Positions 8,179-23,647 of a DNA stretch of 64,000 nt are shown here, piece by piece. The stretch is from an uncultured Oscillospiraceae bacterium. GTDB taxonomy: Bacteria > Bacillota > Clostridia > Acetivibrionales > DTU013. Below the pieces are notes generated by a model. It made no database searches, had not been told where the DNA came from, and saw only the letters and a list, made by a program, of their open reading frames with translations. The position numbers were made by a program, and so were the translations under genes. How positions within the stretch are numbered: position 1 is the stretch's first letter; every line of letters begins with the position of its first letter. The stretch spans positions 34,919-98,918 of the forward strand of contig CAZEIH010000004.1 in NCBI GenBank assembly GCA_964512095.1, written 5' to 3'.

Positions 8179-8342
8179 TCGGGAACCCTCTTTCTACAAA
8201 GCTAATACTATTTTTGACATAGCATATGATTATTTTTCATCCAATATATTCTACACAAAAAAACATCTGCCGTAAAGCAAGTTCAACAATCAAAAAACAA
8301 CATCCTTCTACTGCTGCCTCTGTGTCACCCCTTTTCATCATT

Positions 8343-8404
8343 TTATCTATGTCTTCACTCAATGCCGATCCATAGCAGTCAGCGTCTTCTGAAGACATAA
8401 ATAA
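8343..8404. repeat. Inverted pair of the repeat-end motif (ttatctatgtcttca / tgaagacataaataa)
   Basis: The arms at 8343-8357 and 8390-8404 are reverse complements at 14 of 15 positions. The same motif ends the 128-bp repeat at 8557-8571 and at 45542-45556. Confidence 0.6.
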
Positions 8405-8444
8405 AAAACCGGCATAGCCGGTCAAACTCAAACCACGCTATGCC

Positions 8445-8572
8445 GATAGTCAATTCGCTTCGCTCAGAGAGTCAGGTGGAGACTGAACATCACCTGACCA
8501 AGAAAGTTAATTAATTTGTCTTCATTCATCGCCGACCTATAAAGGTCAGCGTCTTCTGAATACACAGATAAA
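8445..8572 (+). repeat. Interspersed ~128-bp structured repeat, copy A
   Basis: Aligns by eye to the reverse complement of 45541-45668 at about 110 of 128 positions, including a ~38-nt perfect core. It contains hairpins gtcaggtg...cacctgac and cgccgacct-ataa-aggtcagcg. Confidence 0.85.
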
Positions 8573-8600
8573 ATCCCTAAGACTGGCTTTTATCAAAACA

Positions 8601-9734
8601 TCATTTCAGGTTTATATTCACAGTTACAGTGACAAAATCAGAATTAAGTCTGATTTCTTCAATTTGACTATCTATGGTTTCCATTTCAATTTGAAGCTTT
8701 GAAATCTCATCTGCATTTTTGACGGCGTTATCCGCTTTAAGCTCCTGTATCGCAGTATCATACCATACTGATTGTTCAACCAGCATATCTGCAGTAGCTG
8801 TCATTTCCTCAGATACAAATGCTCCTGTGTGTACATCAGCTGCACCAAAGGTTTCATTCAGTGCTGCCGCAAAGGTATAGTAGTCATCTTCTGTAAATAT
8901 ATATTTCAACTGTATCTGAGAGTTGTTTTTAGCTTGTATAGCAGAAGCCTCATGTATTTCATTGACATTGTCCTGCATTTCGTCAAGTGGGAGCATTGCG
9001 TTGTTCACAGACGCCAGGACAGTGACCTTACCCACTGTAACTCCCATATCCTTTGCTGTAATAGTGAAACTTGAGGATTTCTTGCTGAGCGTTTCATTGT
9101 CATCTAGATAAGTCTCATTATCACGAGCTACCATTGTCTCGGAACGGTCTACTCCAAAGCTTTTAGAGGGCGTACCTAACGGTTGATCATGCTGCTTAAT
9201 ACCATAATCCATATTTTGATCGCCGTCATTTATATCTGCGGACTCCGTCATTTGAATGGTAAATGCATCTGGAGCTCCATCCTCACTTGCCCCTGTAGCA
9301 TCAACTGGTGGAGTAGAGGGTGCTTGTGCTGTCATCCCGGCGTCTTTTTCATTCATTGAAAAATTATTAGAAAATAATCCAAACCTAACCATACTTCCCC
9401 CAAGGAAGATTAGGAGCATGGCCGCGGCTATAGATGCTAAGGTCCGTACAATAGGGTTATTCTTATTCTTCAGCTTTATCGGGACTACATTTATGTTTTC
9501 CTGTCTTGCTGAAATTGCCGTCAGTTTTTCATGTAGCTCTGCTTTGAATCCAACAGGTAGCTCCAGCATCGGCATATTATTGCAAATTCCAATTATCCTA
9601 AGCATTTCATCGAGTTCTTCCTTACATTCAGGACATTCTTTGATATGCTCCTCAAAAGCTAGCCTTTCATTGGCATCCAACTCATTATCAGCATATACGC
9701 TTATATTTTCCCTTATATCTGAACAGCTTGTCAT
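8601..9734 (-). CDS. Anti-sigma factor (zf-HC2 N-terminus, one TM helix, large extracytoplasmic domain)
   Basis: N-terminal H-x3-C-x2-C motif (HIKECPECKEEL); TM segment IVRTLASIAAAMLLIFLGG. It lies directly downstream of the ECF sigma gene. An AAGGAGGGG RBS precedes the ATG at 9734. Confidence 0.8.
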   Translation of the reverse strand: MTSCSDIRENISVYADNELDANERLAFEEHIKECPECKEELDEMLRIIGICNNMPMLELPVGFKAELHEKLTAISARQENINVVPIKLKNKNNPIVRTLASIAAAMLLIFLGGSMVRFGLFSNNFSMNEKDAGMTAQAPSTPPVDATGASEDGAPDAFTIQMTESADINDGDQNMDYGIKQHDQPLGTPSKSFGVDRSETMVARDNETYLDDNETLSKKSSSFTITAKDMGVTVGKVTVLASVNNAMLPLDEMQDNVNEIHEASAIQAKNNSQIQLKYIFTEDDYYTFAAALNETFGAADVHTGAFVSEEMTATADMLVEQSVWYDTAIQELKADNAVKNADEISKLQIEMETIDSQIEEIRLNSDFVTVTVNINLK

Positions 9735-9753
9735 CTCCACCCCTCCTTTCAAG

Positions 9754-10350
9754 TTATTTGACGTAATCATCAAATAAAAGTTCCCGCTTGGATGATAGAA
9801 TGTTTTTAAGAGCTACTCTAGCTCTATTGATTCTGGATTTCACTGTGCCCCCCGGACATTTCAAAGTCTCTGATATTTCTTCGTAACTCATACCATCAAT
9901 ATCTCGCAGAGTTATAACTACTCTCTGATCCTCAGGAAGCATATTGATAGCATCATTAACAATCCTGCGCACTTCCTCTCGTTCCGCGTTCTGCTCAGGA
10001 CCAATCTCATCACTTTCTACCTGGCGTTTCATATCACCGTCATCCATATGAATATCCTCATCTAGCGATAGAATCTTCTTGTTTTTTCTCTTTCGTATTT
10101 CATCCAGGCATACATTTGTAGTTATCCTATATATCCAGGTGGAAAAAGAAGACTCCTCTTTAAATTTGGAGATAGCCTTAAAAATCCTGACAAAGGTTTC
10201 CTGTGCCAGGTCTGCGGCATCATCATAATTCCCTATAATCCTAAATGCCAGATTGAACACTTTTTTTTGATATGCATCTATGAGCTCTTCAAAAGCTTCT
10301 ATATCGCCAGCTTTCGCCTTATGAAGCAAAAGCTGCTCATTTTGTTCCAT
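9754..10350 (-). CDS. ECF-type sigma-70 family RNA polymerase sigma factor
   Basis: Region 2 (FEELIDAYQKKVFNLAFRIIGNYDDAADLAQETFVRIF) and region 4 (EDQRVVITLRDIDGMSYEEISETLKCPGGTVKSRINRAR). An AGGGGG RBS precedes the ATG at 10350. Confidence 0.9.
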   Translation of the reverse strand: MEQNEQLLLHKAKAGDIEAFEELIDAYQKKVFNLAFRIIGNYDDAADLAQETFVRIFKAISKFKEESSFSTWIYRITTNVCLDEIRKRKNKKILSLDEDIHMDDGDMKRQVESDEIGPEQNAEREEVRRIVNDAINMLPEDQRVVITLRDIDGMSYEEISETLKCPGGTVKSRINRARVALKNILSSKRELLFDDYVK

Positions 10351-10401
10351 AGAATTCTGCTGCCCCCTGAAATCTATATAAAAATAACACATTTAACTCT
10401 A

Positions 10402-10459: not shown

Positions 10460-10819
10460 TCAAAGTGTTTCGCACCCACCCGGATAGCTAATAGTCACCT
10501 TGCCGCATCTGGCTAGCATGGGTCCCATAAAAATTATCGATGAACGCATCTCCGCTGCAAGCTCAACTGGGATCTGAGTTTCTCTGATATTAGAAGAATT
10601 TATGGTTATAACATCGCCTTCTGCCTTTACACTGCAACCTATTTTTCTGAGTATTCCGATCATTACCTCCACATCTTTTAGTCCTGGACAATTCTTGATG
10701 ATACTTTCCCCGCCATTAAGCAGGGATGCAGCCAAAATAGGCAATACGGCATTCTTGGAGCCCTCGACTGCGATCTCACCCTGGAGTCTGGCGCCTCCCG
10801 TAATAACTAATTTGCTCAT
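10460..10819 (-). pseudogene. murA: Truncated murA (UDP-GlcNAc 1-carboxyvinyltransferase), N-terminal ~119 codons only
   Basis: MSKLVITGGARLQGEIAVEGSKNAVLPILAASLL...TISYPGGC matches the MurA N-terminus. Similarity stops right after PGGC and a stop follows 3 codons later. Full-length MurA is ~420 aa. Confidence 0.8.
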
Positions 10820-10868
10820 AAAAACACCTCGCACACATTCCATTTTATGCGAGGTAATTGTAATGTGT

Positions 10869-16045: not shown

Positions 16046-18244
16046 TTACTCTACATTATCCATATTCCTAAATTCCACTAGAACTACACTGCCTTTCTTA
16101 ACCGCCACACCCTCCGCATACTGTTGCTTGTATACAACTCCATTACCCGACACCCTAATATTTAAGCCTGAACGATTTGCTGCTCCTATGGCTTCAGAGA
16201 TTGTCTTACCAGATAAATCCGGCATTTTTACAGTCTGCTCTCCTTCAGGTTTGTAGGTATATAGAATTACAGTTGAGCTCTCAGGAATCACAGAATTAGG
16301 CTTTGGTACTTGCTCAACAACGTTGCTTTCGTTATTTCCTTCCCCTTCAATGCTATATTTCAAGCCTGCTGACTTCAGGACCTTGACCGCCTCTCCTACA
16401 GTTTTTTTGCGAACATCAGGCACGTATACATCTTGTGTCATTGCTTTGAGATCCTCTTGAGAATACTGCCGTTCAACCTGCATATAGCTCAGTGTATCCT
16501 CTGATATCTTTCCAACTATTGGGGCTGCAATGACTCCTCCCATATGCGAGTCTCCTCTGGGGTCAATAAGCACTATTAGTGTTACTATCTCAGGATTATC
16601 GGCAGGAGCAAAGCCGCAGAAGGAGGCAATATAAACATTCTGTACTGTGGTCTCCGATGTGCCGGTTTTTCCTCCAACCCTGTAACCTTTTACGTATGCA
16701 TTATTACCTGTTCCCTTTGCTACTACACCCTCCAGTATATCTCTAACAGTTTGGGATGTCTGTTCAGATATTACTGTTCTTACCACCTGGGGCTCATACT
16801 TTTCTACTGTATTGCCCTCAGAGTCTGTTAATTCTTTTATCAAACGTGGTTTCATCAGCTTGCCGCCATTAACAAGAGCACAATAGGCAGTTGCAAGCTG
16901 CAAAGGTGTTATTGTGAACCTTTGGCCGAAGGAAGCTACAGCCATGTCGATTTCCTTGGGCTTTGGCTGAAATTGAGACTTTGCCTCACCCTTTAATTCT
17001 ATTCCTGTCTTATCCATAAAGCCAAACGCCTTCATATAGCTGTAGAAACGCTCCAGCCCAAGGCCTTGTGCCACTTTAACAAAAGCTGGATTACACGAAT
17101 TATACACAGCTTCTCTAAAGCTCTCTGTACCATGGGGCCTTTCTACACGCCAACAGTTTATGGGCTTAGGCCAACCGTCCACTTTGATGGGCAGATCATT
17201 TGTGATTGTTTCCGGAGTTACTACCCCTTCTTCTAAGCCTGCAGCAGTTGTTATACTTTTAAATGTGGAACCAGGCTCGTAGGTATCCGTTAAAGCCCTA
17301 TTCCTCCATACTGTCTTACTGAGAATATTAACTGAACTACTGGACCTTTCAACCCACTCTGAAGGATCAACACCATCAATCTCTATTTTTGCTGGATATG
17401 CAAAGGGACTGTTGAGATCATAGTCAGGCTTAGAAACCATTGCAATGATATCCCCTGTTTTAGGATTCATAACGATGCCTACGGCACCACCCTTAACTTT
17501 ATTATCCTCAACGGCCTTATCCAAGGATTTGGACAAGAGGTACTGTATTGTTTCATCAATAGTCAGCACAACATTTAGACCATCTTGAGCATCTATTCTC
17601 TTTTCTGAATCTGACGGTACAGCACTTCCTCTTGCATCCACCTCGCTAAGTATTTTTCCTGGGGTGCCTTTGAGATACTTATCCATAACCTCTTCAATGC
17701 CACCCATGAGTCCTTGATTATCATCTCCGGCAAATCCAAGTATATGGGACATAAGATTCCCATTGGGATAGTATCTTTTAGCATCCTCATCAATATTTAT
17801 GCCCTTTACACTGTTTTCAGACATCCAGGTCCTTATCTGTATCTCTATATCTCTATCCACCTTGCGCTTTATAACTGCGCTGTTTGCTTTTTTTGTAATA
17901 AGACGGTGGACATCATCTCTATTTAAGGAAAGTATTTCAGCCAGTTGATTGGCTACCTGATCAACACTTAGCCTTTTGTTTTTCTTGATTTCATTGGGAT
18001 TGCAGCTTATAGTTCCAGCTTGAACGCTGATTGCCAGCTTTTTGCCATTCCTGTCGTATATCGTACCTCTAATAGGACTGATTATTCTGCCAGTGTTCTG
18101 CTGTACTGAGACTTTTTTTTGTAGCTCACTTCCCTGAACAAACTGTATTTGGGCAAGCCTCCCGATTAGGGTTATTACAACTACTGCGAATACACACAAT
18201 AGTACTATTAGACGTCTTTTTACAACAAGTCCCGGTGCCGTCAA
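16046..18244 (-). CDS. Class B penicillin-binding protein (FtsI/PBP2B/SpoVD type) with two C-terminal PASTA domains
   Basis: N-terminal TM helix, dimerisation domain, transpeptidase motifs STFK, SCN and KTGTS, and two PASTA repeats (VPDVRKKTVGEA..., MPDLSGKTISEA...). Confidence 0.93.
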   Translation of the reverse strand: MTAPGLVVKRRLIVLLCVFAVVVITLIGRLAQIQFVQGSELQKKVSVQQNTGRIISPIRGTIYDRNGKKLAISVQAGTISCNPNEIKKNKRLSVDQVANQLAEILSLNRDDVHRLITKKANSAVIKRKVDRDIEIQIRTWMSENSVKGINIDEDAKRYYPNGNLMSHILGFAGDDNQGLMGGIEEVMDKYLKGTPGKILSEVDARGSAVPSDSEKRIDAQDGLNVVLTIDETIQYLLSKSLDKAVEDNKVKGGAVGIVMNPKTGDIIAMVSKPDYDLNSPFAYPAKIEIDGVDPSEWVERSSSSVNILSKTVWRNRALTDTYEPGSTFKSITTAAGLEEGVVTPETITNDLPIKVDGWPKPINCWRVERPHGTESFREAVYNSCNPAFVKVAQGLGLERFYSYMKAFGFMDKTGIELKGEAKSQFQPKPKEIDMAVASFGQRFTITPLQLATAYCALVNGGKLMKPRLIKELTDSEGNTVEKYEPQVVRTVISEQTSQTVRDILEGVVAKGTGNNAYVKGYRVGGKTGTSETTVQNVYIASFCGFAPADNPEIVTLIVLIDPRGDSHMGGVIAAPIVGKISEDTLSYMQVERQYSQEDLKAMTQDVYVPDVRKKTVGEAVKVLKSAGLKYSIEGEGNNESNVVEQVPKPNSVIPESSTVILYTYKPEGEQTVKMPDLSGKTISEAIGAANRSGLNIRVSGNGVVYKQQYAEGVAVKKGSVVLVEFRNMDNVE

Positions 18245-18330
18245 CCAAATCTCCCCCCTCGGAATTGAAATTTGTAATATAAGGAAACAAAACTTTCCTG
18301 CAAACGGAAATTTCCCTAATAAAACTGTGT

Positions 18331-18358
18331 ATTATAAAAAAGACTATAGACCATGCAA
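18331..18358 (-). promoter_or_regulatory. Candidate internal promoter upstream of the PBP gene (TTGCAT-16-TATAAT)
   Basis: On the minus strand, TTGCAT (18358-18353), a 16-nt spacer, then TATAAT (18336-18331), within the 192-bp ftsL-PBP spacer. This is a hand match only. Confidence 0.3.
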
Positions 18359-18436
18359 AAAATAATATTTTACACTATCCACAGTCTATTTTTTCTCATA
18401 AATGTCGCTCTTTACTGTCTGCAGCTTTTATGACCT

Positions 18437-18928
18437 CTACTCAAAAAGCTTCAAAAAACTGGCTGCCTTATTAATTAAGGTTTCTGTTATGCTACTATCA
18501 TCACTATTAGCTTGAGTTCTCGGAGTCATCATAACAGTATAATCGCTTCGTGGTACGTTTATATATATAATCTGGCTTTTATCAGGCATTTGCATGCCAA
18601 GTCTATTTTCTGCAACCTCCCTGACTTCATTCAGATCAGTCTTTGATTCTATCTGAACCTTTAAAAGCGAGTTTTCATTTCTTATTTCCTGGTATTCTTT
18701 TTCTTTCTGAATAAAATCATAGTTAACCTTTGTAATTATAGCATATCTGCACATTACAACAAGTCCTGCTGTTAATACGGCAATTATAGCAACAACCATT
18801 TTGAGCTTTACCTTCCTATTACTCTTATACCGTTTTTTCGCCTTTAGTACCTTATTCTCTTCGTAAACATCGTACTCAAGCTGTCTAGCTGCAGAACCAT
18901 GTACATAATCATATCTCTCATGTTTCAA
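18437..18928 (-). CDS. ftsL: FtsL-like cell-division protein (single TM helix + coiled-coil)
   Basis: Sits between rsmH and the PBP gene. It has basic N-terminus, TM helix (MVVAIIAVLTAGLVVM) and coiled-coil region. TTG start with an AGAGGTG RBS. Confidence 0.7.
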   Translation of the reverse strand: MKHERYDYVHGSAARQLEYDVYEENKVLKAKKRYKSNRKVKLKMVVAIIAVLTAGLVVMCRYAIITKVNYDFIQKEKEYQEIRNENSLLKVQIESKTDLNEVREVAENRLGMQMPDKSQIIYINVPRSDYTVMMTPRTQANSDDSSITETLINKAASFLKLFE

Positions 18929-19000
18929 TTCTATTCACCTCTTAAGTGATTTATGCCATACTGTAGGCTTAGTGTTCTTCTGTTTATTATGGTTCTTTTC

Positions 19001-19160
19001 TTTTGTGTTTTAGCTTTGCTAAAAGTGCTTTCTTTTGTGTTTTTATTTTGTGTTTTTATTTTGTGTTTTTATTTTGTGTTTTTGTTTTGCTTTTTTCTTT
19101 TGTGTTTTGTCTTTTGAGCTTTGCCTTTTGTGTTTTTCCTTGTTTTGTCTTTTGTGTTTT
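19001..19160 (-). repeat. Array of eight exact AAAACACAAAA 11-mers (sense strand), four of them in a perfect 13-bp tandem (19033-19084)
   Basis: The plus strand carries TTTTGTGTTTT starting at 19001, 19033, 19046, 19059, 19072, 19098, 19126 and 19150. The array is embedded in a degenerate T/G-rich tract spanning ~18985-19380. Confidence 0.9.
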
Positions 19161-19401
19161 GTTACTTACTTTTCTTTAGTACATTGCATTGGCCTTTTTT
19201 TCTTTAGTGTTTTGTTGCATGTCTATTCCTTTAGGCGCATTGTCAGCGCCGTAGATGCGTATTTAAGCATATTGTAAATTTTATCTTTCGTGTATCCTGC
19301 TTTTCCTAGCCTCATTTGCTTTGGTTTGGCTTTGCATTTTGTCCTTTGTACCTTAACTGCTTGTCTTATGTTTTTTGTTGCTTAATCTTTTGTAATAATT
19401 T

Positions 19402-20340
19402 TTATAGCTTTACTGCTGTTCTCAGCTTTGCGCTTCTGGAGCGTGGATTCTGATTCACTTCATCCTCCGACGGCAATATAGGCTTTTTTGTCATTTTTTT
19501 TAGTTCCGGTTCCTTGCCGCATATACATACCGGAAATGCTGGAGGACAAGTGCACGGTTTTTCTCTCCTCTGGAATTCGTTTTTCACTATTCTGTCTTCC
19601 AGAGAATGAAAGGTTATTATACTCAGCCTTCCTCCCGACTTCAGCAGCCCTACAGCTCCATCTATGGCATCCTTTAGTGCTGCCAGCTCATCATTCACGG
19701 CAATCCTCAGTGCTTGAAATGTCCTTTTTGCAGGATGAGGGCCGTCCCTTCTTGCCTGAGCCGGTATTGCCGCTTTTATTATGTCTACCAGTTGGCCTGT
19801 TGTCTCAATTCTGTTGTTTCTTCTTGCTTCTGTAATGAATGCTGCTATCCTTGCCGCCCAGTTCTCTTCCCCATAATCACGGATTATTTCTTTTATAGCC
19901 TTTTCGTCATATGTGTTTACTATCTCAGCGGCATCAAGGTTACGATTTCTGTCCATCCTCATATCCAGCGGAGCATCCTGTTGATAGCTGAATCCTCTCT
20001 CAGCCTCGTCCAGTTGGTAGGATGATACTCCAATGTCTAGCAGTATGCCGTCTACATCTTGAATACCATGCTGTCCGACGAGCTGTTTCATATCACGAAA
20101 ATTGCCTTTTATGAGGATCAGTCCTGCATTTTGTCTTAACTGTTGAAGTCTTTCGCCGGCTACTTTTATAGCTGTTGAATCTTGGTCTATGCCTATGAGT
20201 GTACCCTTGTCTAGCCTTTTGATGATTTCAGCACTGTGACCGGCTCCTCCAAGAGTTCCGTCTATATACGTTCCATTTTTGTCTATGTTCAAGCTGTCAA
20301 TGGATTCTTCCAGCAGTACCGACTTATGATTGAATTCCAT
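19402..20340 (-). CDS. rsmH: 16S rRNA (cytosine1402-N4)-methyltransferase
   Basis: The MraW/RsmH family is recognisable throughout (HKSVLLEE..., [16 protein letters not shown]-like [10 protein letters not shown]). GGAGGA RBS. Confidence 0.95.
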
Positions 20341-20370
20341 GGGTTTGTCCTCCTGCAGTATTTTTTTCTC

Positions 20371-20802
20371 TTAGATGCCAAGCATTGCAAATGTTTCGGA
20401 TAAGCTTTCAGGGCTAAGGCTATCACCTTTGATGTATTGTTCCCACTTGTCCTTACTCCATACTTCAACTCTGTTGCCTACACCTACAATGCTGATTTCT
20501 TTATCCAGCTGTGCGTGGCTCCTCAAATCCTGAGGTATCAGTATTCGAGAATGCCCGTCCATCTGGCACTGAGCTGCACTTGAGAAGAAAAACCTGCTGA
20601 AATCACGAGCCTTGGTATTGGAAAGTGGTAAAGTTTCAAGTTTTTCGACCAGACTGTTCCATTTGGGCATAGAAAATATGAATAAGCAACCTTCCAGCCC
20701 TTTTGCTATCATGAATCTCATATCTAACTCGTCTCTAAAGGCTGCAGGAACGATTACCCTGCCCTTCGGATCTATAGTGTGTTGAAATTCACCATAGAAC
20801 AA
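20371..20802 (-). CDS. mraZ: Transcriptional regulator MraZ
   Basis: A 143-aa protein with two SpoVT/AbrB-like halves (FQHTIDPKGRVIVPAAFR..., MDGHSRILIPQDLR). TTG start with a GAGGTG RBS. It is the first gene of the dcw cluster. Confidence 0.92.
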   Translation of the reverse strand: MFYGEFQHTIDPKGRVIVPAAFRDELDMRFMIAKGLEGCLFIFSMPKWNSLVEKLETLPLSNTKARDFSRFFFSSAAQCQMDGHSRILIPQDLRSHAQLDKEISIVGVGNRVEVWSKDKWEQYIKGDSLSPESLSETFAMLGI

Positions 20803-20822
20803 TCATTTCACCTCTCTTTTCC

Positions 20823-20859
20823 CCACTTTCAAACCACTTCCACCCACTTCGTACCACTT
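20823..20859 (-). promoter_or_regulatory. Four direct AAGTGG repeats at ~10-bp spacing (putative MraZ boxes)
   Basis: The minus strand reads AAGTGGtacgAAGTGGgtggAAGTGGtttgaAAGTGGgga. The plus-strand CCACTT copies start at 20823, 20834, 20844 and 20854, between the candidate promoter and the mraZ RBS. Confidence 0.7.
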
Positions 20860-20866
20860 GTCTATA

Positions 20867-20895
20867 AGTTTATAGTAAATTTCGGGAATAATCAA
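20867..20895 (-). promoter_or_regulatory. Candidate dcw/mraZ promoter (TTGATT-17-TAAACT)
   Basis: On the minus strand, TTGATT (20895-20890), a 17-nt spacer, then TAAACT (20872-20867). An alternative -10, TATAAA, lies at 20874-20869. This is a hand match. Confidence 0.35.
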
Positions 20896-21080
20896 GACAT
20901 ATTTGGAATATTTTTTAAGATGGGTCAAAAGTCCTATTAATAATAAACAGCGTCGCCGGTCCCAGAGCCAATTTGTAGAAGGGCTTTGCGGAATAGAACA
21001 TGCTCTCCACAAGCAAAGCCTACCGATTTCTTGTGCTGTACAGGCAACACTGTTTGTGGAGGCAGGCTAAGTTTGAAGCA

Positions 21081-21108
21081 ACAAAAAACAGCCCTCGTGC
21101 GAGAGCTG
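21081..21108 (-). terminator. Intrinsic terminator downstream of rodA
   Basis: The minus-strand hairpin cagctctcg-ca-cgagggctg has one mismatch and is followed by TTTTTTGTTG, ~35 nt after the rodA stop. Confidence 0.7.
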
Positions 21109-21142
21109 ATATAGCTATTAGTTATCTAATTTGGAGCTATTT

Positions 21143-22303
21143 CTATTGAGAACTATTAAAAATCTTCTTCCTTCGCCGCATAGACACACTTAGGAGAATA
21201 CCGATATTGAGGTAATTAGCTATTAACGAGCTATTTCCCTGGCTTACAAATGGCAACGGTATTCCCGTAACCGGTAGCAAGCCAATACACATCCCTATAT
21301 TCTCAATAAAATGAAAACCCAACATCGCAGCCACACACACAGCCATATATGAACCATACAAATCTCTCGCGTTCATTGAAATTTGCAGACACCTAAACAA
21401 CAAAAAGAAAACTATAAGAACAAAAATAATTGATCCAATAAAACCCGTCTCCTCACCTATTACAGAAAAAATAAAGTCCGATTCCTTTTCCGGGACATTG
21501 AACATGCTTGAGGTGACGCCTTCTTTTAGCCCATGAAAAATTCCCTTTCCATATATCTGGCCCGACCCTATGGTGACTTTGGATCGATAAACCTGAAGAC
21601 CATCTCCAAGTAAGTCTAATTCAGGGTATATGAAGGTCATGATCCTTTTCTTAATATGTGGGAACTTCTGTGGTATGACATACAGCCATAAAACAGGCAC
21701 AGCCACAGCAGATGCGCCCATTGCGATGAGAAAATACCTGTAGGGTATTCCAAATATAAAAATGAGTACAACAAATGCAAATACAAAAACCATTGCCGTT
21801 CCCACATCTGGCTGGAGCAGGACAAGACCGATGGGAAGCATCGCGTATATGAACAGCTTTACAACATTTTTCCCAATGTCCTTACCTTCCTTGAGTCTTT
21901 CCAAAAACAGTGGCACAATAAGTACGAATGCAACCTTGGAAAACTCAGATGGCTGGATGTTTCCTATTAAAGGGACTTTAAGCCAGCCTTTCGTCCCATG
22001 TCTCTCTTCTCCTATAATAAGCACCAAAATAAGAAGGGCAATACTACCCATATATACCACTATACCTAATGTCCTAAAATCTTTGTAGTCAATTGCACTT
22101 ATTGTGATTGCGGCAACTATGCCTATTCCCAGACATATTACCTGTTTGAGCCAAACTGGATGAATGCCCGGATTGCCCAGGGCACTTTTGAGCGCTATAA
22201 TGCCATATACTGATAACAATAGAACGGCCGCAAAAAGCGGATAATCAAATTGCTTAAAATAATCAATGCTCTTTGTTTTTTCTACATAATACATTTTATC
22301 CAC
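21143..22303 (-). CDS. rodA: SEDS-family peptidoglycan glycosyltransferase RodA-like
   Basis: A 386-aa polytopic protein with FtsW/RodA signatures (QPSEFSKV, PEKESDFIFSVIGEE, GIPLPFVSQGNSS). Confidence 0.85.
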   Translation of the reverse strand: MDKMYYVEKTKSIDYFKQFDYPLFAAVLLLSVYGIIALKSALGNPGIHPVWLKQVICLGIGIVAAITISAIDYKDFRTLGIVVYMGSIALLILVLIIGEERHGTKGWLKVPLIGNIQPSEFSKVAFVLIVPLFLERLKEGKDIGKNVVKLFIYAMLPIGLVLLQPDVGTAMVFVFAFVVLIFIFGIPYRYFLIAMGASAVAVPVLWLYVIPQKFPHIKKRIMTFIYPELDLLGDGLQVYRSKVTIGSGQIYGKGIFHGLKEGVTSSMFNVPEKESDFIFSVIGEETGFIGSIIFVLIVFFLLFRCLQISMNARDLYGSYMAVCVAAMLGFHFIENIGMCIGLLPVTGIPLPFVSQGNSSLIANYLNIGILLSVSMRRRKKIFNSSQ

Positions 22304-22525
22304 CCATGTTGCAAATTTAAGCAGTTAGCTGCCAATTTTCATAAATTCTATACCGTACTTCTATCAACTTTCATCCTCCAAAAACTAACAATACTGATGT
22401 TAAGCCTTTTCTAAGGCAGCATATCTCATCATAAGCTACATCATTAGATATGGTCTTTGCAAGTCATATTAGGCTTCAGTTTGCGCCAATGAATCATCTT
22501 TTTTGTAATTCCAGTTTTACATATT

Positions 22526-23647
22526 TTAACCCTCATTGCCCTCTGTTTCCTCTGCCGCCACTCCTTCAGCCCCCGCTACATCTTTGGCTTCCACTGCTTC
22601 TTCGGCCCCCGCTACTCCTTCGGCTTCCACTGCTTCTTCGGCCCCCGCTACTTCTTCAGCTTCCGCCACTTCTTCAGCTTCCGCCACTTCTTCGGCTCCC
22701 GCTACTTCTTCAGCTTCCGCTGCTTCCGCTGCTTCTTCAACCCCTGCTGTCCCCGATTCCTCAGCCTTCATTTTCATCAAAAGTGACCCATATCGACTTT
22801 GACCAAGTTCAACCGGTTCACTATCCTCAGACTTCTTCTGCCTGAGTCTTCTGTATATGAAAAGCCAAAGGCCTGCAACCAGCAACACTATAGAGAGTAA
22901 CTGTGACACCCTAAAGCTACCCAAGTAGAGGCTATCTGTCCTCATTCCTTCAATTATCGCTCTCCCAGCTCCATAAAGTATAAAATAAAGGAAGAGCACC
23001 TCGCCCTCAACCTTCTTCTTTTTTCTGTAGTTGGCCAAAAACAAGAAAATGGCAATATCCAGTATTGACTCATATAAAAATGTAGGATGAACACCCCATT
23101 TGGAAAGATCAACACCGGGCTGAAAATTGGTAAGGTATCTATCGGCAACACTTCCATTCATTCTCCATGGTACATTTGTGGCTACTCCAAAGGCTTCCTG
23201 GTTCACAAAATTGCCCCAGCGTCCAATACCCTGCCCCAGCGCCAGGTAAGGTATACCAAAGTCAGCCAGATGCAGGAATGTCATTTTCTTCTTTTTAGCA
23301 TAAATCCAGGCGACCAGCAAAGCTCCAATTACACCGCCGTAAATTGCCAGGCCTCCGTCTCTGAACTTTAAGATTTTTATCAGGTCACCACTGTATTGGT
23401 CCCAACTAAAAACCACATAAAATAGTCTGGCGAATACTATCGCCACCGGAACAGCAAATAGAACAAGATCAAGTATGTTATCCGGAACAAGGTTATATTT
23501 TTTGCTGCTTTTTATTCCCAATAGCACGGCTAAAAGAAATGCAAATGCAATTATTATCCCGTACCAGAATATCTCTATATTAAATATCTTAAAAGCATAC
23601 CTTTGTATTTCAAATTCCAGTCCCAAACCCGGAAAACTAATATTCAA
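22526..23647 (-). CDS. lgt: Phosphatidylglycerol--prolipoprotein diacylglyceryl transferase with ~100-aa acidic repeat tail
   Basis: The Lgt core shows YGIIIAFAFL, GGLAIYGGVIG, GRWGNFVNQEAFG and HPTFLYES. The C-terminus is an E/A/V/G repeat region. Confidence 0.92.
   Translation of the reverse strand: MNISFPGLGLEFEIQRYAFKIFNIEIFWYGIIIAFAFLLAVLLGIKSSKKYNLVPDNILDLVLFAVPVAIVFARLFYVVFSWDQYSGDLIKILKFRDGGLAIYGGVIGALLVAWIYAKKKKMTFLHLADFGIPYLALGQGIGRWGNFVNQEAFGVATNVPWRMNGSVADRYLTNFQPGVDLSKWGVHPTFLYESILDIAIFLFLANYRKKKKVEGEVLFLYFILYGAGRAIIEGMRTDSLYLGSFRVSQLLSIVLLVAGLWLFIYRRLRQKKSEDSEPVELGQSRYGSLLMKMKAEESGTAGVEEAAEAAEAEEVAGAEEVAEAEEVAEAEEVAGAEEAVEAEGVAGAEEAVEAKDVAGAEGVAAEETEGNEG
22545..22745 (-). repeat. 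In-frame 18-bp-period tandem repeats encoding (A/G)(E)EEV/A-type hexapeptides in the lgt 3' end
   Basis: Visible repeats gcttccactgcttcttcggcccccgctac... and gcttccgccacttcttca, translating to ...AEAEEVAGAEEVAEAEEVAEAEEVAGAEEAVEAEGVAGAEEAVEA... Confidence 0.85.

Follow-up and report, generated by a model that had tools for sequence, protein, structure and literature searches.

A conserved sense-strand array of short A-rich motifs in the mra operon of Clostridia, probably a control element acting at the RNA level

The window, i.e., the whole 64 kb stretch of DNA analyzed here, carries an mra operon on its minus strand, in which mraZ, rsmH and an FtsL-like gene are followed by genes for a PASTA-type PBP, murE, murF, mraY and ftsW, all on the same strand. 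An earlier note on this DNA had reported a 473-bp spacer between rsmH and ftsL, and its coordinates were reproduced in our analysis. The operon's proximal part and the features of the spacer other than its repeats are as follows:

20823-20857, minus strand: canonical MraZ-binding repeats upstream of mraZ (GTGG x4, ~10-nt period)
20371-20802, minus strand: mraZ, the operon's first gene
19402-20340, minus strand: rsmH (mraW; Pfam MraW, 413 bits)
18929-19401, minus strand: rsmH-ftsL intercistronic spacer, 473 nt, non-coding, 57% A on the sense strand, predicted to be unstructured
19234-19250, minus strand: small 5-bp hairpin in mid-spacer, GGCGC-tgacaat-GCGCC
18935-18956, minus strand: conserved 3' end of the spacer, GCATAAATCAC..GAGGTGAATA, followed by.AATTG
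18935-18949, minus strand: 6-bp mini-hairpin TCACTT/AGGTGA, overlapping the ftsL Shine-Dalgarno sequence
18437-18928, minus strand: FtsL-like gene with a conserved TTG start (Pfam FtsL, 24 bits)

On its sense strand, the spacer is composed of 0.57 A, 0.17 C, 0.14 G and 0.12 T. It had been described as A/C-rich and G-poor, and while A-rich is correct, a C-rich and G-poor composition is found only in the repeat core (plus-strand GC skew of +0.22 at 19000-19199); such a skew is not seen in any other gap between genes in the window. The sense reading frames are indeed very short, only one in the spacer reaching 30 aa (19223-19315), and the fold z-score of the spacer RNA (-0.68) predicts that it is unstructured. 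Scans of the minus strand at 18929-19401 yielded no promoter-like or terminator-like sites. The mid-spacer hairpin occurs at the same place in two related loci, as GGCGC/GCGCC in L003 and as GACGC/GCGTC in L002, and the sequence GGTGAATA at the spacer's 3' end is found in 46 of the 52 long rsmH-ftsL spacers considered below.

The repeat first noticed in this spacer was an 11-mer, AAAACACAAAA, said to occur there in eight exact copies. We confirmed all eight on the minus strand (at plus-strand coordinates 19001, 19033, 19046, 19059, 19072, 19098, 19126 and 19150), where 0.14 copies are expected by chance and no shuffled sequence contained more than one. All of the copies lie inside the spacer, with none elsewhere in the 64 kb window, and the 11-mer is not the common genome-wide word that it might have been. 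Four copies (19033, 19046, 19059 and 19072) form the perfect 13-nt tandem described in the earlier note (TRF period 13, 10.2 copies), and the degenerate copies, described as extending to ~19380, reach 19393.

Scanning genomes for RsmH produced 80 loci, and 52 long rsmH-ftsL spacers were analyzed. The statement that rsmH and ftsL normally abut was borne out in the outgroups (Peptoclostridium, Fimicola, Tyzzerella and others), whose spacers measure 17-117 bp, but not in about 50 related loci, where the spacer spans 220-790 bp and contains 41-54% A on the sense strand. The latter belong to Acetivibrionales/Hungateiclostridiaceae-type MAGs, Pseudobacteroides cellulosolvens and uncultured Acetivibrio. 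A long spacer is thus kept by most relatives; one exception is locus L053, which has a spacer of only 28 bp although its FtsL is 44% identical to that of the window, indicating that the element is dispensable in some lineages.

What these spacers share is a shorter motif, ACAAAAGA, which is present in 51 of the 52 and amounts to 290 copies, as against 8.05 +/- 3.0 expected from first-order Markov simulations. Its density is 12.8 per kb in the spacers and 0.10 per kb in the flanking sense DNA, a 128-fold difference, and the antisense strand holds a single copy. A position weight matrix (PWM) refined from 401 sites in 51 spacers gave the consensus H-A-C-a-A-A-a-G-A-n-r-A-r, in which C1 and G6, five bases apart, never vary, position -1 can be any base but G, and positions 2, 5, 8 and 12 are tolerant. 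Relatives carry 5-28 copies, at distances that are broadly distributed (~13-40 nt, with peaks at 15-17 and 21-25 nt) and show no 10.5-nt phasing. The linkers between sites are unrelated in sequence, and in pairwise spacer alignments the motif cores are 78% identical as compared to 59% between motifs, a difference that can be inflated where repeats are aligned to paralogous copies. The periods (13, 16, 17, 22, 23 and others) are often not multiples of three, and this variable spacing indicates that the array neither codes for protein nor is a tandem repeat of the ordinary kind; a low-complexity coding repeat was likewise rejected on account of these periods and of a longest sense ORF of 30 aa.

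The array also proved not to be tied to one position. Within the window and the 80 loci (~770 kb in total), clusters of at least three exact copies are confined to the rsmH-ftsL spacer, except in L028, which has arrays in both this spacer and the one between mraZ and rsmH. A context-free scan of metagenome contigs with three extended motifs yielded at least 120 loci, and 53 of the 120 matches listed lie inside mra operons, always on the sense strand. Among these matches, 40 arrays are located between mraZ and rsmH (33 with both genes on the contig and 7 with one), 11 between rsmH and ftsL, one upstream of mraZ, and one on a contig with only the PBP gene. The mraZ-rsmH loci, many of them from human-gut samples, encode an RsmH 48-65% identical to that of the window, and those of their spacers that were read are AT-rich; the extended motif is the same in this group: G is excluded at -1, position 8 is free and positions 9-11 are A-rich. 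In one lineage of this group the array occupies a 180-nt mraZ-rsmH spacer, and only 31 nt separate rsmH from the next gene, a 174-aa ORF at the ftsL position with no Pfam match. The cross-species comparison that the earlier note had proposed thus finds the array kept in about 50 related genomes and in about 35 non-redundant mra operons among the metagenome matches listed.

Some arrays were seen outside the mra operon. Among the matches listed there are about 20 further non-tandem arrays in other contexts, which include a spacer leading from a thioredoxin gene to an L-lactate dehydrogenase gene (seven contigs), a position ahead of a SpoIID-domain gene, where a perfect terminator follows the array, one between FocA and an Fe-S protein, and one between two ORFs that resemble PTS IIB/IIC by eye, the downstream one having no Pfam match. 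The remaining matches listed are essentially fixed-period tandem repeats. A looser three-copy ACAAAAGA scan of viral contigs gave more than 120 matches, and the 40 richest were nearly all fixed-period tandems, many of them coding.

These positions bear on a suggestion of the earlier note, namely, that the repeats serve as a translation or stability element for ftsL. Since this array is also found in the mraZ-rsmH spacer, in one case ahead of mraZ, and now and then in other operons, it cannot simply be a translation element of ftsL; judging by where it is found, the element appears to belong to the mra operon and not to ftsL. Given that the motif recurs, always on the sense strand, in the mra operons of many Clostridia, the array is probably a control element at the RNA level and not junk repeat DNA.

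Against this background, the copies in the window could be sorted with the PWM as follows:

19386-19393, minus strand: first motif copy, TACAAAAGATTAA, 8 nt past the rsmH stop; counterpart in close relatives, ATACTAAAGATTAA
19342-19349, minus strand: isolated copy, ACAAAGGA
19284-19291, minus strand: isolated copy, ACGAAAGA, at a conserved position; close relatives have GCAGCGATACACTAAAGAYAAAA
18999-19208, minus strand: dense motif block (PWM sites)
19201-19208 and 19173-19180, minus strand: consensus cores ACTAAAGA (PWM)
19124-19131, minus strand: consensus core ACAAAAGG (PWM)
19110-19117, minus strand: consensus core TCAAAAGA (PWM)
19148-19155, 19096-19103, 19031-19038 and 18999-19006, minus strand: further consensus cores of the dense block
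19028-19079, minus strand: perfect 13-nt tandem, ACACAAAATAAAA x3 and then ACACAAAAGAAAG
19070-19077, 19057-19064 and 19044-19051, minus strand: G-less cores ACAAAATA in the tandem

The window thus holds 11 consensus sites (18999-19393) and three G-to-T variants, ACAAAATA, a form with just five copies among all 52 spacers. Only five of the eight 11-mers reported at first coincide with family-type sites; those at 19046, 19059 and 19072 carry ACAAAATA and lack the invariant G. The 11-mer was therefore set aside as the conserved unit, and AAAACACAAAA is just the form that a deeper one, H-ACAAAAGA-N-R-A-R, takes locally.

Could the whole array be neutral, slippage-prone A-rich simple-sequence DNA, an alternative that the earlier note had itself raised? 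For one sub-block it could. Aligning the window with L001-L004 and L007 showed that the copies near the rsmH stop and in mid-spacer occupy conserved positions, and that the dense block of ~170 nt, the 13-nt tandem with it, was inserted in the window's lineage only. A fixed period is seen only at 19028-19079 (four 13-nt units). The exact RsmH and FtsL proteins recurred only on short-read contigs of the same species, and these break inside this tandem. With three of its copies lacking the invariant G, the tandem looks like a recent slippage expansion; these copies are probably recent, degenerate products of slippage, and the perfect tandem they form is probably non-functional. Copy number also varies between species, from 1 to 23. 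For the rest of the array, however, slippage does not account for a motif of 8-12 nt that is kept, with variable spacing and unrelated linkers, in two different operon spacers and in genomes whose RsmH is 49-86% identical to that of the window. Moreover, the viral matches that we inspected, which came from the looser pattern, and the metagenome matches outside operon spacers have a fixed period, unlike the array. For the family, the neutral reading is therefore disfavored, and we consider it very improbable.

In most relatives, the array is followed on its 3' side by a stable hairpin. In the Acetivibrionales group this hairpin has the form CCGRGR...YCYCGG with a T-rich tail, and lies 30-180 nt before ftsL. 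A covariance model (R1) detected it in 39 loci, on the sense strand and always within the spacer, and found no match in the window or in L001-L005 and L007. Among cultured members, Pseudobacteroides cellulosolvens DSM 2933 (L036) has both the array and a hairpin. Across the alignment of the model, 86.9% of cells are paired, as compared to 26-56% in slid controls, and seven of the nine pairs show compensatory changes. The AT-rich clade has a different, longer hairpin at the same place (...CAGYTGGTA...TACCARCTG..., or GGCTGGAGT...ACTCCAGCC), often without a U tract. That the hairpin covaries argues that the region functions as RNA, and a like role for the array is suggested by its consistent place before the hairpin on the sense strand. 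Such a two-part module is not universal, since the window and L001-L005 and L007 do without the hairpin; the window's lineage would, from this comparison, have lost it, while keeping the array and the small hairpin predicted to occlude the Shine-Dalgarno sequence.

A hairpin at this place invites a reading by attenuation or antitermination, whereby a protein bound to the nascent repeats would decide whether the polymerase passes a GC hairpin with a U-rich tail before ftsL. In the 39 loci, the GC hairpin does covary, has a T-rich tail (TATTACTTTCC or ATTTATTGTC) and is flanked 5' by A-rich sequence; it lies at the distance given above, with no promoter in between, and in L212, L240 and L305 a perfect terminator follows the array. 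Yet the window and its closest relatives lack this hairpin, the hairpin of the AT-rich clade is often followed by A-rich or stem-extending sequence in place of a U tract, and neither an alternative antiterminator pairing nor an uninterrupted U tract was found. In the window itself, an intrinsic terminator or attenuator was rejected for want of any GC hairpin with a U tract on the minus strand at 18929-19401, and the U tracts of the 39 related loci are imperfect. We therefore regard attenuation as unlikely.

We further looked for promoters and found no consistent sigma-70 promoter across the 52 spacers, 35 of which have none at all. By eye, a TTGATA-N16/17-TATAAA-like site can be seen in L001-L004; it is not kept in the window. 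With no recurrent sigma-70 promoter, ftsL and the distal genes must be expressed from transcripts that run through the array.

The lack of a nearby promoter also weighs against action at the level of DNA, in which the array would be a set of oriented binding sites for a transcription factor or nucleoid protein acting on the mra operon. A direct repeat of fixed orientation that is strictly tied to one operon is what such sites would look like, and strand specificity and operon association would fit them as well as they fit RNA. Nevertheless, the two spacing peaks are not in helical phase, the array may lie as far forward as ahead of mraZ or as far back as past rsmH, a covarying RNA hairpin consistently accompanies it, and the strong purine and A skew, with its depletion of U and G, suits an RNA that is kept unfolded. 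Nor are the repeats MraZ boxes. The MraZ-binding repeat of B. subtilis consists of GTGG[A/T]G x3 with 4-nt spacers (bioRxiv 10.1101/2022.02.09.479790). Such an operator would show at least three GTGG[A/T]G (or TGGGN) boxes at a period of ~10 nt; the spacer lacks a GTGG series, and canonical boxes are found upstream of mraZ in the window, L028 and L325. A DNA-level role appears quite unlikely on these grounds.

No established family or element accounted for the array. In Rfam, no family, the mraW motif included, matched the window's spacer even at E <= 10; within 18000-21200 of the window there were just two matches, both of them chance hits to snoRNA models at 18337-18536, outside the spacer, and 15 related loci gave nothing at the gathering score. 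Among the DnaA, Spo0A, CodY, PhoP, WalR and SpoIIID boxes and the ssDNA preference of CspB, we know of none that fits the AC..AA.GA core. Complementarity to the 3' end of 16S rRNA was rejected because the motif contains AGAAA only, with no GG, and a triplet array of the TRAP or HutP type because the unit is 8-12 nt long at a spacing of 13-40 nt, as opposed to triplets 2-4 nt apart. Our literature search found no description of the motif, of repeats in the rsmH-ftsL or mraZ intergenic regions, or of Clostridium sRNAs at this locus.

Two further readings take the array to be RNA. According to one of them, it is a Rho loading (rut) site or anti-polarity element within a long untranslated stretch of the operon. 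The spacer RNA is long, untranslated and unstructured, and C exceeds G in the window's repeat core (and in its spacer as a whole, 0.17 against 0.14); in the family, however, G equals or exceeds C (C 0.10-0.19, G 0.13-0.24), and the sole conserved C is preceded by A, so that YC dinucleotides are rare. A rut site, which would take 60-80 nt or more of unstructured RNA rich in C, poor in G and containing YC dinucleotides, was rejected for these reasons, and a role in Rho loading is highly unlikely.

The other holds that the array, made when the transcript is terminated or processed past rsmH or mraZ, acts as a protein sponge or 3'-UTR-derived sRNA that titrates an A-rich-binding protein such as Hfq, as is the case for CrcZ or CsrB. 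Its many single-stranded A-rich motifs, of which AAAAGAAAA can be read as (ARN)3, would suit this role, as would the hairpin and U-rich tail after the array in relatives, which resemble those of Hfq-binding sRNAs, and the similar arrays in a few other operons. When the ARN pattern was examined, AAA-AGA-AAA fitted one register, and runs of this kind are expected by chance at 57% A; if the register is taken from the tolerant positions 2, 5 and 8, however, the third triplet begins with the invariant G and the first has the invariant C in its middle. The A-site of one A-R-N triplet is thus an invariant G, with an invariant C upstream, neither of which is canonical ARN. In addition, the array's location within one operon is conserved and it has no promoter of its own, making a sponge distinctly improbable.

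Taken together, these results show that the finding is real and broader than the earlier note supposed; the mechanism, meaning action as RNA, reading by a protein, the identity of that reader and the direction of its effect, is what we infer. We favor the reading of the array as a multivalent single-stranded RNA platform, on the operon mRNA, for an RNA-binding protein or endonuclease, and assign it a probability of roughly 0.5. Such a platform had been proposed in the earlier note, and the idea gained strong support from conservation, with corrections to the repeat unit, to the presumed specificity for ftsL and to the origin of the tandem.

The spacer would then be a cis-acting, non-coding part of the polycistronic mraZ-rsmH-ftsL-pbp-mur mRNA, kept single-stranded and displaying many motif copies, which would serve as landing sites for a trans-acting RNA-binding protein or endonuclease. 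Binding or cleavage at the array would set how much intact, stable and translatable message is available for ftsL and the distal genes relative to mraZ-rsmH, the predicted outcome being selective processing and stabilization that uncouples the former from the latter. In the lineages that have it, i.e., most of them, the hairpin 3' of the array may serve as a cleavage determinant, a 5' stabilizer or an attenuator.

The most plausible candidate readers would be KH-domain proteins, either RNase Y or KhpA/KhpB. In B. subtilis, RNase Y sites feature a GA dinucleotide in AU-rich, poorly structured RNA, often with a structure downstream, and have a weak consensus (PMC11780869). Stabilizing hairpins define operon maturation sites (PMC11780869; see also PMC5449607), and in the cip-cel operon of another cellulolytic clostridium, Ruminiclostridium cellulolyticum, GC-rich intergenic stem-loops are cleavage signals and stabilizers that set stoichiometry (PMC10311766). 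As at such sites, each motif of the array contains a GA, the invariant G6-A7, within A-rich RNA of low structure. Most relatives have a structure downstream of the GA sites, while the window has only the 5-bp hairpin (19234-19250) and the 6-bp Shine-Dalgarno mini-hairpin. In light of these site features and of the cip-cel stem-loops, processing and stabilization is the most concrete version of the platform reading. The weak consensus of RNase Y nevertheless leaves the strictness of an 8-12-nt motif, with its C and G fixed five nucleotides apart, unaccounted for, and a dedicated reader is therefore likely. As for KhpA/KhpB, RIP-seq in other bacteria enriches ftsL and ftsZ transcripts (PMC11039985), a link that would serve as a lead and not as a test.

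Going one step further, and at somewhat less than even odds, we propose that the ACAAAAGA arrays form a class of regulatory RNA element not described before, multivalent and unstructured, by which the mra operon is marked in several deep lineages of Clostridia, and that a dedicated sequence-specific RNA-binding protein may use them to set the dosage of FtsL and of the downstream divisome and peptidoglycan genes, with a small additional regulon comprising ldh, a SpoIID-like gene, a PTS operon and an asr-like operon.

Within the divisome, FtsL is both unstable and rate-limiting. To our knowledge, how bacteria balance mraZ-rsmH against ftsL and the mur genes within one transcript is poorly understood, and the motif, occurring in anaerobic cellulolytic and gut Clostridia, offers a concrete handle on this control. 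The array RNA can be used as bait for its reader, and point mutations of C1 or G6 should give clean phenotypes. If read as proposed, the array could provide the first sequence-specific target of a global Firmicutes RNA-binding protein (RNase Y or KhpA/B), and would lend itself, as a portable part, to the tuning of gene ratios inside the operons of industrial clostridia.

Among known systems, RNase Y operon-maturation sites and selective RNA processing and stabilization, as in cggR-gapA of B. subtilis, saePQRS of S. aureus and cip-cel of R. cellulolyticum, have in common with the array an intercistronic, unstructured, A/U-rich RNA, a GA, and a hairpin downstream (PMC11780869, PMC10311766). Both could set the levels of proximal versus distal genes within one operon. 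The known sites are nonetheless single and have a weak consensus, whereas the array repeats a strict 8-12-nt motif 5-28 times, cleavage within it is a prediction, and in the window it has no hairpin.

The (G/U)AG repeats bound by TRAP in the trp leader of B. subtilis and the UAG repeats bound by HutP likewise place many short single-stranded motifs before a hairpin. In these systems an oligomeric protein reads the repeats, 9-11 (G/U)AG triplets or 2 x 3 UAG, and controls downstream expression. The array has a different and longer motif, an irregular spacing of 13-40 nt as opposed to 2-3 nt, no fixed copy number and no evident antiterminator/terminator alternative. CrcZ/CrcY (AAnAAnAA, Hfq/Crc) and CsrB/RsmZ (GGA) are multivalent arrays of short single-stranded motifs as well, those of CrcZ being A-rich, and CrcZ can be processed from the transcript of the upstream gene. 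CrcZ and CsrB are dedicated sRNA genes of Proteobacteria, while the array lies between cistrons of an essential operon of Clostridia and has an invariant C and G.

Two known elements share the operon. The MraZ repeats are direct repeats, but they lie upstream of mraZ, recur every 10 nt as GTGG[A/T]G and are unrelated in sequence to ACAAAAGA. The mraW RNA motif of Rfam is also non-coding and mra-associated, yet it is structured and lies upstream of mraW in Actinobacteria, whereas the array is unstructured and built of repeats. In kind, the array resembles the known multivalent single-stranded RNA arrays and the intercistronic processing modules. What is new about it is the motif, how it is distributed, its association with the division operon and the flexibility of its position.

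Motif arrays were also found away from the mra operon. Among the matches listed, nine-copy arrays of the ACAAAAGA type, with variable spacing, separate the genes for a thioredoxin and an L-lactate dehydrogenase in human-gut contigs (L207, L208, L217, L254, L259, L280 and L292), and in three other metagenome contigs (L212, L240 and L305) a four-copy array and a perfect terminator both lie 5' of a gene encoding a SpoIID-domain protein. Together, the arrays linked to these genes hint at a small regulon outside the mra operon. In the AT-rich clade, where the array separates mraZ from rsmH, the spacer begins with a CTTGNAAAAGTTTATATA box, conserved right after the mraZ stop and 5' of the first motif copy (L205-L319 group).

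A long spacer at the rsmH-ftsL position need not mean a motif array: that of L070, a Romboutsia MAG serving as outgroup, spans ~512 nt yet holds zero ACAAAAGA motifs, and thus not every long spacer at this position is such an element. In the window's own species, short-read contigs (L201/L202, Logan SRR8925752) end and begin within the perfect 13-nt tandem; the array locus is therefore probably split or collapsed across many public assemblies.

Elsewhere in the window, the dcw cluster includes an ORF that matches the EPSP_synthase/MurA profile over only the N-terminal 115 of 417 positions and is a truncated murA-like fragment, followed by genes for a sigma factor and an anti-sigma factor:

10460-10843, minus strand: 127-aa ORF, murA-like fragment
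9754-10392: ECF sigma factor, next after the fragment
8601-9773: zf-HC2 anti-sigma factor

The gap between polA and the anti-sigma gene measures 422 nt (8179-8600), and its plus strand is strongly skewed (C 0.25 > G 0.14). Two further reading frames overlap:

22526-23647: Lgt gene
22450-22845, plus strand: 131-aa ORF of PLLLRPPLLL-type repeats, running antisense over the 3' portion of Lgt

Because the Lgt gene exceeds the Pfam LGT domain by ~100 aa, its product would carry a repetitive C-terminal extension.

Around the mra operon, the following elements were located:

21089-21108: terminator-like hairpin at the end of the ftsW/rodA-like gene upstream
20823-20857, minus strand: four GTGG boxes, ~10-nt period, directly upstream of mraZ
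18245-18436, minus strand: ftsL-PBP gene gap, 192 nt

The region's top promoter-like match, TTTGCA-17-TATAAT (18359-18331, minus strand), falls inside the ftsL-PBP gap and is a possible internal promoter for the pbp and mur genes. The GTGG boxes correspond to canonical MraZ-binding repeats.
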